Part shown: one piece after another, positions 9,804-10,422 of the stretch
Numbering within the stretch: position 1 is the stretch's first letter
How the letters are laid out: every line of letters begins with the position of its first letter
IMG/VR virus record: IMGVR_UViG_2778261708_000011
From: a virus
Taxonomy: Duplodnaviria; Heunggongvirae; Uroviricota; Caudoviricetes
Length of the DNA: 11,013 nt
Reading direction: 5' to 3' (one strand)
Notes under the pieces: model-generated
The model's database searches: none
Seen by the model: only the letters and a program-made list of their open reading frames with translations
What the model was told of the DNA's origin: nothing
Made by a program: the position numbers and the translations under genes

Positions 9804-10211
9804 ATGGAATTTAAAGATTTACCAACGCCATTACAGGAAATGGCATCGAATATAGTTCGTTCACAACTGGCTACTCTTGACCTTAGTACCGCAGAAAAAG
9901 AAACCATCGATAATATGGTTCGTAATGTGCGCAATGCTTTTTCTGGGCTATATGGTTCTGATAATCAAAAGCAGGAAAGCGATGTTAATAAACGGGTAAT
10001 TTCTGTTTGCGTGAATGGCCATGTTCTTTCATCAATCAAAACAGAAACGGCGACAGTCTTCGATTGCCTTTGCATTGTACAGAGCCTTGTTGATGCCCTG
10101 TTTCGTTCAGTGAATTTAGAAAATGATGCAAATCTGCGAGGGCGCATAATAGCACATCCATATGCACATACTTTAGGCTCTGTGGATATCAAAGATCCCA
10201 CAAATCTTTAA
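9804..10211 (+). CDS. Hypothetical protein, 135 aa, AT-rich gene
   Basis: ATG with GAGG 6 nt upstream; no recognisable motif. Its 3' end overlaps the convergent gene 10189-10422 by 23 nt. Confidence 0.55.
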   Translation: MEFKDLPTPLQEMASNIVRSQLATLDLSTAEKETIDNMVRNVRNAFSGLYGSDNQKQESDVNKRVISVCVNGHVLSSIKTETATVFDCLCIVQSLVDALFRSVNLENDANLRGRIIAHPYAHTLGSVDIKDPTNL

Positions 10212-10422
10212 TGAAATAGTTAACGCGAATTGTACTTGCTCTTTCGGTTGCTTTCAGAATACGCGTTGAAACTGCTGGCGGTAATTTGGTATTCCATTTA
10301 TTAAAATCATGCCCGGGAAAGTACTCTTCGAAAATACTTTTAACTGCAGACTCGCCTATTGAAATGCTGCTTACCATGCGATTTTGATAAAGGCATTTAG
10401 CAATAAGAGTTGATTTTAACAT
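10189..10422 (-). CDS. Hypothetical protein, 77 aa, convergent to the early operon
   Basis: ATG at 10422 with AGGAGG 4 nt upstream (CAGGAGGGTGAATG on the minus strand); soluble-looking sequence MLKSTLIAKCLYQNRMVSSISIGESAVKSIFEEYFPGHDFNKWN...; AT-rich like its partner. Confidence 0.55.
   Translation of the reverse strand: MLKSTLIAKCLYQNRMVSSISIGESAVKSIFEEYFPGHDFNKWNTKLPPAVSTRILKATERASTIRVNYFIKDLWDL

Follow-up and report, generated by a model that had tools for sequence, protein, structure and literature searches.

The DNA analysed here (hereafter the window: a stretch of 11,013 nucleotides (nt) from the Caudoviricetes record IMGVR_UViG_2778261708_000011 of IMG/VR) belongs to a prophage of the Qin/PPompW type, which is common in enterohaemorrhagic Escherichia coli (EHEC). 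Its genes follow each other in the order cro-like, dicA-like repressor, orf99, ydfC, A, B, dicB, DUF1482, exonuclease, xis and int, with an ompW remnant. The subject of this analysis is the cassette formed by A and B, two small open reading frames (ORFs) that face each other and overlap at their 3' ends. The main features of the cassette are as follows (aa, amino acids; RBS, ribosome-binding site).

9802-10435, no strand assigned: the cassette, a 634-bp segment with A, B and both RBSs, present in the window and absent from the Qin prophage of E. coli K-12.
9804-10211, plus strand: gene A, 135 aa, WP_000394552.1, a two-domain early-operon protein (ORF and RefSeq coding sequence).
9804-9983, plus strand: N-terminal domain of A, 'MEFKDLP...AFxGLY', residues 1 to about 60, common to forward genes of this slot whose C-terminal domains are of at least four kinds.
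9984-10208, plus strand: the A-domain, residues about 61-135, conserved partner of B (PHROG 23433).
10189-10211, no strand assigned: the 3'-end overlap, 23 nt, TCAAAGATCCCACAAATCTTTAA, near-palindromic; both proteins end in I-K-D-x-x-x-L.
10189-10422, minus strand: gene B, 77 aa, WP_000920491.1, coding for a small basic soluble helical protein and lying reversed in a sieB-like slot.
10423-10435, minus strand: RBS region of B (CTCAGGAGGGTGA 5' of the ATG), a flank that also serves alternative reverse genes of the slot.

In the ORF listing both genes start with ATG, A behind a GAGG placed 6 nt 5' of its start codon and B behind an AGGAGGG placed 3 nt 5' of its own. The GC content of the cassette is 0.391 (A 0.397, B 0.363) versus 0.480 in the left flank, 0.497 in the right flank and 0.487 in the whole window. 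An earlier reading made from the letters alone (the sequence-only reading) had described two convergent ORFs with good RBSs, a 23-nt overlap and a composition richer in AT than the flanks, and all of this was confirmed. It had also proposed a comparison with K-12 Qin as a way of recognising an insertion. The pairwise alignment of the two prophages shows a precise indel: a single clean gap of 634 bp between ...GCTAA and GGTTGGTAATTAAGGAG, which in K-12 Qin has the ydfC stop region on one side and the dicF leader on the other; both flanks of the cassette align over their full length with scattered mismatches only. Among 5,426 complete E. coli genomes, the whole cassette is present in 644 and B in 650 (at least 99% identical in 611 of these 650), the empty K-12-type junction occurs in 2,708, and 8 carry an alternative allele of the slot. 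The module is optional and polymorphic. In RefSeq both products are hypothetical proteins; no paper in the literature names WP_000394552 or WP_000920491, and the papers on dicBF, on PPompW and on a division-inhibitor screen are silent on A and B.

The association of the two genes extends far beyond this prophage. In every diverged prophage locus that carries B, a gene with an A-domain converges on it; such paired loci were found in three enterobacterial genera, namely Klebsiella (L006-8), Serratia (L009-11) and Proteus (L012), and on ten further distinct viral contigs (L080-L094). Of the 14 distinct non-E. coli enterobacterial loci, two have an overlap of 26 nt and the others one of 23 nt. The overlap is 24 nt for the A-domain/B pair of a Burkholderia ambifaria prophage (L097) and again 23 nt in a phage-like metagenome contig (L106), whose convergent gene is clearly homologous to the A-domain; on another metagenome contig a convergent 95-aa gene overlaps B by 29 nt and is, by its position, a candidate A-domain partner. 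The pairing is kept in these loci although B is only about 37-60% identical to the window copy. The pair is also carried by a functional isolated phage, Evi. A/B is thus a conserved accessory module of lambdoid prophages, convergent and 3'-overlapping, and the claim of the sequence-only reading that this is an undescribed accessory module is not only supported but considerably sharpened; neither protein matches a characterised family. Because B homologues exist in at least seven enterobacterial genera, because of the substitution ratios given below and because the convergent overlap is found in all diverged loci examined, A and B are, on this comparative evidence, real genes, beyond what chance would give. 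Concerning the overlap itself, its palindrome was considered as a terminator and rejected (the stem is weak and a U-run is absent), and a scan found no terminator between the A and B coding regions.

A profile search against 1.8 billion representatives delineated the B family as 163 clusters at 50% identity, nearly all of 74-80 aa. Full-length homologues with 55-72% identity occur in Klebsiella, Dickeya, Xenorhabdus, Salmonella, Morganella, Yersinia and Serratia. Within the family M1 and W43 are invariant and K3, C10, L11, F31 and I71 nearly so; the ratio of nonsynonymous to synonymous substitution rates (dN/dS) is about 0.08, indicative of strong purifying selection. On such conservation, B is clearly protein-coding. 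Its AlphaFold2 (AF2) model, with a predicted local distance difference test (pLDDT) score of 96.7, is a compact soluble bundle of five helices; the isoelectric point (pI) is 9.5, a transmembrane (TM) segment is absent and the highest mean Kyte-Doolittle hydropathy over 19 residues is 0.59. The possibility that the N-terminus (MLKSTLIAKCL) is a signal peptide or that of a lipoprotein was rejected, since the hydrophobic stretch is too short, the cysteine is preceded by K, T, Q or N, and the segment is helix 1 of a confident model. B-like genes without A were found in Psychrosphaera and in three metagenome contexts (L015, L098 and L107 are non-phage; L096 is too short). Searches for related loci with two remote B-like single proteins as queries found nothing.

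The 135-aa product of A (pI 5.3, no TM segment) matches PHROG 1363 at 4.8e-47; PHROGs 6937, 2151 and 9419 match its residues 1-63 only. The A-domain has the motif VNG..L...T..A...D(Y)L.F......L....LE.(E)AN..G(K/R)T..H, with D87, E106, A109, G113 and H118 invariant in the alignment, and it has stand-alone homologues of 76-95 aa; its dN/dS is 0.37, that of the N-terminal domain 0.6. A is predicted to be partly disordered whereas B is predicted to be compact, and the AF2 model of A is of low confidence (pLDDT 44), for which reason it was excluded from the fold search as unreliable. A homologue search with the C-terminal domain of A alone as query brought up only fragments from E. coli, owing to its word index. 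The A-domain also occurs in other settings. An E. coli allele of 201 aa consists of an A-domain with a 66-aa extension and converges on an unrelated 63-aa gene instead of B. In a 157-aa gene that does converge on B, on a viral contig (L087), the A-domain is joined to a C4 zinc finger of the ClpX type (PF06689, 34.1 bits), and on another viral contig (L094) a YdfC-like domain and an A-domain form a single 193-aa protein (BLASTP E 1e-9, 35% identity). As in E. coli, a YdfC homologue is encoded directly 5' of A in the Proteus locus (L012). Judging from gene order and fusion, ydfC is functionally linked to A. Two weak resemblances of A were discarded: the 'SGKT' of the A-domain is not a P-loop, the GxxxxGK[ST] context being absent, and a match to ROS/MucR had an E-value of 0.088 and 13 bits against a cut-off of 25.

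The sequence-only reading recognised no family for either protein, and none of the collections searched provided a characterised one. Pfam, NCBIfam and PADLOC gave nothing significant for A or for B, and the PHROG families concerned (1363 and 23433 for A, 10348 for B) are of unknown function. Pfam scans of 14 A-domains and of 44 B homologues returned only scattered noise below threshold, and sequence-profile searches of the PDB with the A-domain alignment and with the B alignment returned nothing. Profile and Foldseek searches had been suggested in that reading, and they too revealed no known relative: all Foldseek matches of B in the PDB have E-values above 4, leaving its fold without a PDB neighbour, and a structure search of BFVD with B retrieved only a member of its own family. 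In PADLOC-DB 2.0 no family matched A, B, YdfC or orf99 at E-values up to 1; Pfam and NCBIfam gave nothing usable for YdfC and orf99. Clear homology to early-operon proteins of this prophage family, which the sequence-only reading had named among the findings that would refute it, was looked for as well: neither A nor B has sequence homology to YdfA, YdfB, YdfC, DicB or Kil (YdfC itself belongs to PHROG 1744; DUF1391 and DicB were not matched).

We compared the position of the module with that of accessory genes in related phages. In lambda, N (minus strand) and sieB (plus strand) converge and abut, and rexAB lies between cI and the left operator (OL). The Rac prophage has the order racR, ydaG, ydaF (DUF1391), sieB (reversed, with a 4-nt overlap), the small RNA (sRNA) gene kilS, and kilR; in the window the order is dicA, orf99, ydfC, A, B (reversed), the dicF sRNA gene, and dicB; and in phage Evi ydfC and A are followed by B (reversed), another reversed ORF and kil. 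The kil and sRNA region of Evi aligns with that of Rac up to the sRNA terminator, beyond which Rac has sieB and Evi has the leader and B. In coordinates, this kil/sRNA alignment, which includes a DicF-like terminator, joins 3700-4520 of the Evi locus (L105) to 1500-2190 of the Rac locus (L104). The positions of KilS and DicF in their related early operons appear to be homologous, and the slot of A/B is, by these gene orders, the sieB slot of lambda and Rac, not the rexAB position. The suggestion that the minus-strand gene sits at a known site of prophage-expressed exclusion genes is borne out, since sieB of lambda and of Rac has the same relative position as B.

Five states of the slot were seen in E. 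coli: empty; A with B; genes of 201 and 63 aa; genes of 208 and 69 aa; and a 133-aa gene with reverse ORFs. The alternative alleles are located at 4001-4775 of L003 (201 and 63 aa, with an overlap of 23 nt), at 2501-3337 of L101 (208 and 69 aa) and at 2501-3141 of L100 (133 aa and a possibly frameshifted reverse ORF). All alternative forward genes (133, 201 and 208 aa) begin with the MEFKDLP domain. At the other edge, the flank CTCAGGAGGGTGAA..ATG next to GGTTGGTAATTAAGGAG is common to B, the 63-aa reverse gene of L003 and the reverse ORF of L100; in the allele of 208 and 69 aa the leader has diverged. The two conserved edges of the slot are probably recombination anchors.

Further features that bear on the expression of the module are listed below.

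8520-8927, plus strand: dicA-type repressor gene, 135 aa, HTH_3 (ORF, Pfam, RefSeq).
9002-9055, plus strand: predicted early-left (dicBF-type) promoter, TTGACC-18-TAAATT at 9026-9055, in a repeat-flanked region (promoter scan and repeat comparison).
9563-9781, plus strand: ydfC, 5' neighbour of A and, as judged above, functionally linked to it (RefSeq annotation).
10436-10806, plus strand: conserved untranslated leader including the DicF sRNA, downstream of the cassette in the early operon; on the opposite strand it is the upstream region of B.
10511-10539, minus strand: candidate B promoter TTTTCA-17-TAAACT, sigma-70-like, weak (8 of 12 matches), 88 nt before the B ATG and inside backbone shared with K-12; the only one found.

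The cassette thus lies, as the sequence-only reading had placed it, between the genes downstream of dicA (ydfC ends at 9781) and the structured region before dicF (the leader begins at 10436). The operator-like repeats around the predicted early promoter recur inverted in the dicC/dicA spacer (8480-8518), and the repeats at 8480-8518 and 9002-9055 are likely the right (OR) and left operators of the immunity region of the window. In K-12 it is DicA that represses the dicBF operon (PMC5069750). A comparable layout is seen in Klebsiella (L006), where an ACAG-N6-CTGT palindrome is present in two copies between cI and cro and in two more between the cI stop codon and A, cI is followed by a terminator-like hairpin, and a TTGACC-18-TATTAT promoter, with the two left operators overlapping it, is directed towards A, which is the first gene after OL and the early-left promoter (pL). 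In the window A comes after orf99 and ydfC, behind a promoter predicted to be DicA-controlled, and in the Burkholderia prophage it is second, after a cro-like gene; a CI-type repressor is encoded within 2 kb on the strand of A in more than 10 diverse loci. Since a promoter with operators or operator-like repeats separates the repressor gene from A both in the window and in L006, this predicted anatomy shows A to be a repressed early gene of the early-left operon and not a lysogen gene, and B to be antisense to that operon. The sequence-only reading is accordingly revised: the position is not rexAB-like, the promoter with its operator-like repeats at 9002-9055 lying between dicA and the cassette, and the analogy with rexAB gives way to one with the sieB slot. 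As to the repeats themselves, the inverted pairs GTAGAGAAACCTAAG / CTTAGGTTTTTCTAC and AAATTAGAATTACCTAA / TTAGGCTATTCTAAATT are operator-like and are found both in the dicC/dicA spacer and in the region that follows dicA.

An extended -10 element (TGnTAnnnT) precedes B in each of the 14 distinct non-E. coli enterobacterial loci, exactly one per locus, its end lying 30-34 nt 5' of the ATG; chance would give about 0.1. The motif shows that in most relatives B has a conserved promoter of its own, as far as such an element predicts one. A standard promoter scan between B and dicF in the window found no site. A hairpin next to the start of B (10451-10469 in the window, 4955-4975 in L006, also in L091 and others) is conserved with compensatory change: its arms are CCACC/GGTGG in most loci, CCACA/TGTGG in L091 and CTCCAC/GTGGAG in the window, and in the relatives the 3' arm overlaps the extended -10.

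The leader of the window aligns with that of K-12 over its whole length, with scattered mismatches. The DicF sRNA it contains (10757-10806, plus strand) matches Rfam RF00039 at 43.5 bits, below the gathering threshold of 48; the loop of its terminator hairpin is unlike that of K-12 DicF and the 5' seed region is identical. The dicF-dicB spacer (10795-11000, plus strand) has a sub-threshold match to Rfam STnc100 (32.5 bits versus 47). An ORF of 124 aa on the minus strand (10416-10790) lies wholly inside the conserved dicF leader that the window shares with K-12; it lacks a RefSeq annotation and is probably spurious. In the Klebsiella locus (L006 4868-4908, minus strand) a terminator, GGCGGTGCCAG...CTGGTACCGCCCTTTTT, resembles the 3' ends of DicF and KilS and has the same relative location, downstream of A/B within the early operon. 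A DicF-like sRNA that has escaped annotation may end here. Away from the early operon, three tRNA genes and the sok antitoxin RNA (103.9 bits) of the prophage hokD/sok locus were located on the minus strand at 326-572 and 3491-3640 of the window. In the reference O157:H7 strain PV15-279 (L001 5995-7207) an IS1203 insertion is present in the replication region; the window apparently lacks it, since the coordinates to the left are shifted by about 1.3 kb, and so derives from another strain.

What might such a pair do? We tentatively propose, with low confidence, that B is made by the prophage and serves in exclusion or abortive infection and that A is an early antagonist that frees the carrier phage, the two being coupled by convergent transcription. 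While the repressor is bound, the early promoter would be silent and B would be made from its own promoter; as a small basic soluble protein it would act in the lysogen against superinfecting phages. Upon derepression, early transcription would run antisense through the whole of B, with promoter collision and a double-stranded 3' end as consequences, and would also yield A, whose A-domain would bind and neutralise B so that the phage's own lytic growth escapes. A and B would be expressed in opposite states, following the logic of SieB/Esc in P22. The detail of Esc is said to go back to Ranade and Poteete in 1993, Esc reportedly being an internal in-frame product. By this analogy we infer B expression in E. 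coli lysogens, contact between A and B, and an exclusion phenotype. SieB aborts superinfecting P22-like phages and spares P22 (PMC10883804), and in temperate phages convergent promoters are known to give mutually exclusive expression (PMC5001618). The stronger form of the proposal, that B founds a new family of small soluble exclusion or abortive-infection effectors without a solved fold relative, with the A-domain as its dedicated antagonist in a new defence/self-immunity pair, is more doubtful.

Several observations were counted in favour of the exclusion/antagonist proposal. They include the conserved pairing, the place of A in a repressed early operon, the predicted promoter of B in relatives, the equivalence with the sieB slot, and the precedents of SieB and of convergent phage promoters. 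Each partner is also found alone, which fits an effector and a counter-effector, and the proposal accounts for the solitary bacterial B genes as well as for the phages that carry the A-domain only. The charges of the two proteins are complementary (pI 5.3 for A and 9.5 for B), and purifying selection is strong on B (dN/dS 0.08) and looser on A (0.37-0.6). In E. coli the slot exists in several states, as is usual for hot spots of accessory and defence genes. Other observations weigh against it. The extended -10 is absent from the E. coli copies of the module, including that of the window, as well as from Burkholderia and the remote loci, and in a lysogen of the window prophage B may be expressed poorly or not at all. 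B is soluble and lacks a TM segment, unlike SieB, RexB and most small exclusion proteins, which are membrane proteins, and neither A nor B has a PADLOC match. Within E. coli the C-terminal domain of A diverges to 76% identity while B stays at 97-100%; A thus varies against a constant B, which is not what co-evolution of a tight interface predicts. Finally, the 201-aa allele shows that the A-domain does not depend on B.

Some of these same facts suit other explanations. Perhaps the pair is a regulatory module of the early operon or of the lysis-lysogeny switch, B being a small nucleic-acid-binding regulator or its mRNA an antisense RNA on the 3' end of A, and A an early regulator or a proteolysis adaptor that works with YdfC. 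We consider this unlikely. In its favour, the pair is always within 2 kb of an immunity repressor gene and promoter-proximal (first after pL in L006, second after the cro-like gene in Burkholderia), B is basic (pI 9.5), the A-domain is found fused to a ClpX-type zinc finger (L087) and to a YdfC-like domain (L094), and the structured leader with its compensatory change adjoins B. The conserved 3' overlap, moreover, recalls cII and oop of lambda, where oop acts as an antisense RNA on cII. However, a core regulator would not be expected to be dispensable, whereas 2,708 E. coli genomes have an empty slot and other alleles can replace the module, and a role as RNA only would be insufficient for a B gene whose protein-coding sequence is under strong purifying selection. 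It is a good deal less probable again that the partnership means little, A and B being independent accessory genes packed tail to tail and possibly silent cargo in a defective E. coli prophage; this we hold to be very unlikely. It would suit the missing B promoter of the E. coli copies, the occurrence of either partner alone, and the fact that tight convergent packing is seen with unrelated genes too (N and sieB abut in lambda, ydaF and sieB overlap by 4 nt in Rac, and the unrelated 63-aa gene overlaps the 201-aa allele by 23 nt). Against it stand the persistence of both the partnership and the overlap length in very divergent phages despite phage mosaicism, the intact state of B, with 611 of the 650 E. 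coli copies showing 99% identity or more, and the presence of the pair in Evi, a functional phage.

Between these two in probability, and quite unlikely in our view, is an early toxin with a lysogen antidote, in which A would be a host-directed effector like Kil or DicB and a constitutive B would protect the lysogen from leaky early transcription. In pore-forming colicin operons the immunity gene lies reversed between the toxin and lysis genes, and the topology of A/B can be likened to this. The genes are convergent, A under a repressed promoter and B under one of its own; a conserved N-terminal domain is combined with variable C-terminal domains, each facing a different reverse gene, in a manner resembling polymorphic toxin/immunity loci; A is predicted to be partly disordered and B compact; and the operon is otherwise full of host-toxic products, for example DicF and DicB (PMC5069750). 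Nevertheless, the 201-aa allele has the A-domain without B and faces an unrelated reverse gene, B-like genes exist without A, some of them outside phages, where an antidote without its toxin would be unexpected, and no toxin or antitoxin family was matched in Pfam, NCBIfam, PADLOC or PDB profiles. The E. coli copies, furthermore, lack the B promoter and yet A is intact in 644 genomes. The remaining probability belongs to functions beyond those considered here.

If the proposed exclusion/antagonist function were true, A/B would bring to the prophage exclusion systems both a protein family and a regulatory layout that are new: a temperate phage would switch exclusion off for its own lytic cycle through a repressed early antagonist that faces the effector gene. 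The sieB slot of lambdoid early-left operons would then be a polymorphic hot spot of accessory genes that could be mined, and phages with an A-domain only would use it as a counter-defence gene. About 12% of complete E. coli genomes carry the module, among them EHEC of serogroups O157, O26, O103 and O145, and it also occurs in Klebsiella, Serratia, Proteus and Burkholderia prophages. The adjoining dicF and dicB already affect phage sensitivity and virulence regulation, so that the module could influence which Shiga toxin (Stx) phages establish themselves in EHEC. Even if the functional guess is wrong, a strictly conserved pair of convergent, overlapping protein-coding genes offers a clear opportunity to test how genes can be coupled although phage genomes are mosaic.

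Comparison with known systems shows both likenesses and differences. YdfA, YdfB, YdfC, DicB and Kil are, like A and B, small products of the same operon, without a sequence relationship to them. Lambda cII/oop and phages 186 and P2 share with A/B the arrangement of facing units in which a reverse transcript covers the 3' end of an early gene (here as predicted from the coding overlap); in cII/oop, however, the reverse unit is an RNA, whereas here it is a conserved protein, B, and the module is optional rather than a core switch. Colicin/immunity loci also combine an inducible gene with a small partner that can be constitutively expressed, and have variable C-terminal domains with matching partners. 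Type II toxin-antitoxin pairs are co-directional operons whereas A/B is convergent in all loci; A and B have no toxin, immunity or antitoxin homology and both are found alone. RexA/RexB of lambda, the classic abortive-infection system, likewise consists of two accessory genes of a prophage and maps to the same side of the repressor. But rexAB lies between cI and OL and is co-transcribed with cI, whereas the early promoter and operators separate the repressor from A/B; the rex genes are co-directional, A and B convergent; and neither A nor B has RexA/RexB homology in Pfam, NCBIfam or PADLOC or is a membrane protein. The closest parallel is SieB of lambda, P22 and Rac: its gene, like B, is reversed in a repressor-controlled early-left operon, converges on a promoter-proximal early gene and lies upstream of a block made up of an sRNA and a division inhibitor. 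In sequence B is unlike it, PF14163 matching Rac SieB at 1.5e-31 (the positive control) and not B, and with 77 aa B is soluble and basic where SieB has about 160-190 aa and is membrane-associated. The proposed escape factor, A, would be a separate convergent gene, in contrast to the internal in-frame product that Esc of P22 is said to be. SieB is expressed from the prophage and spares its carrier phage (PMC10883804), and it is by analogy with this behaviour that an exclusion role is proposed for B.

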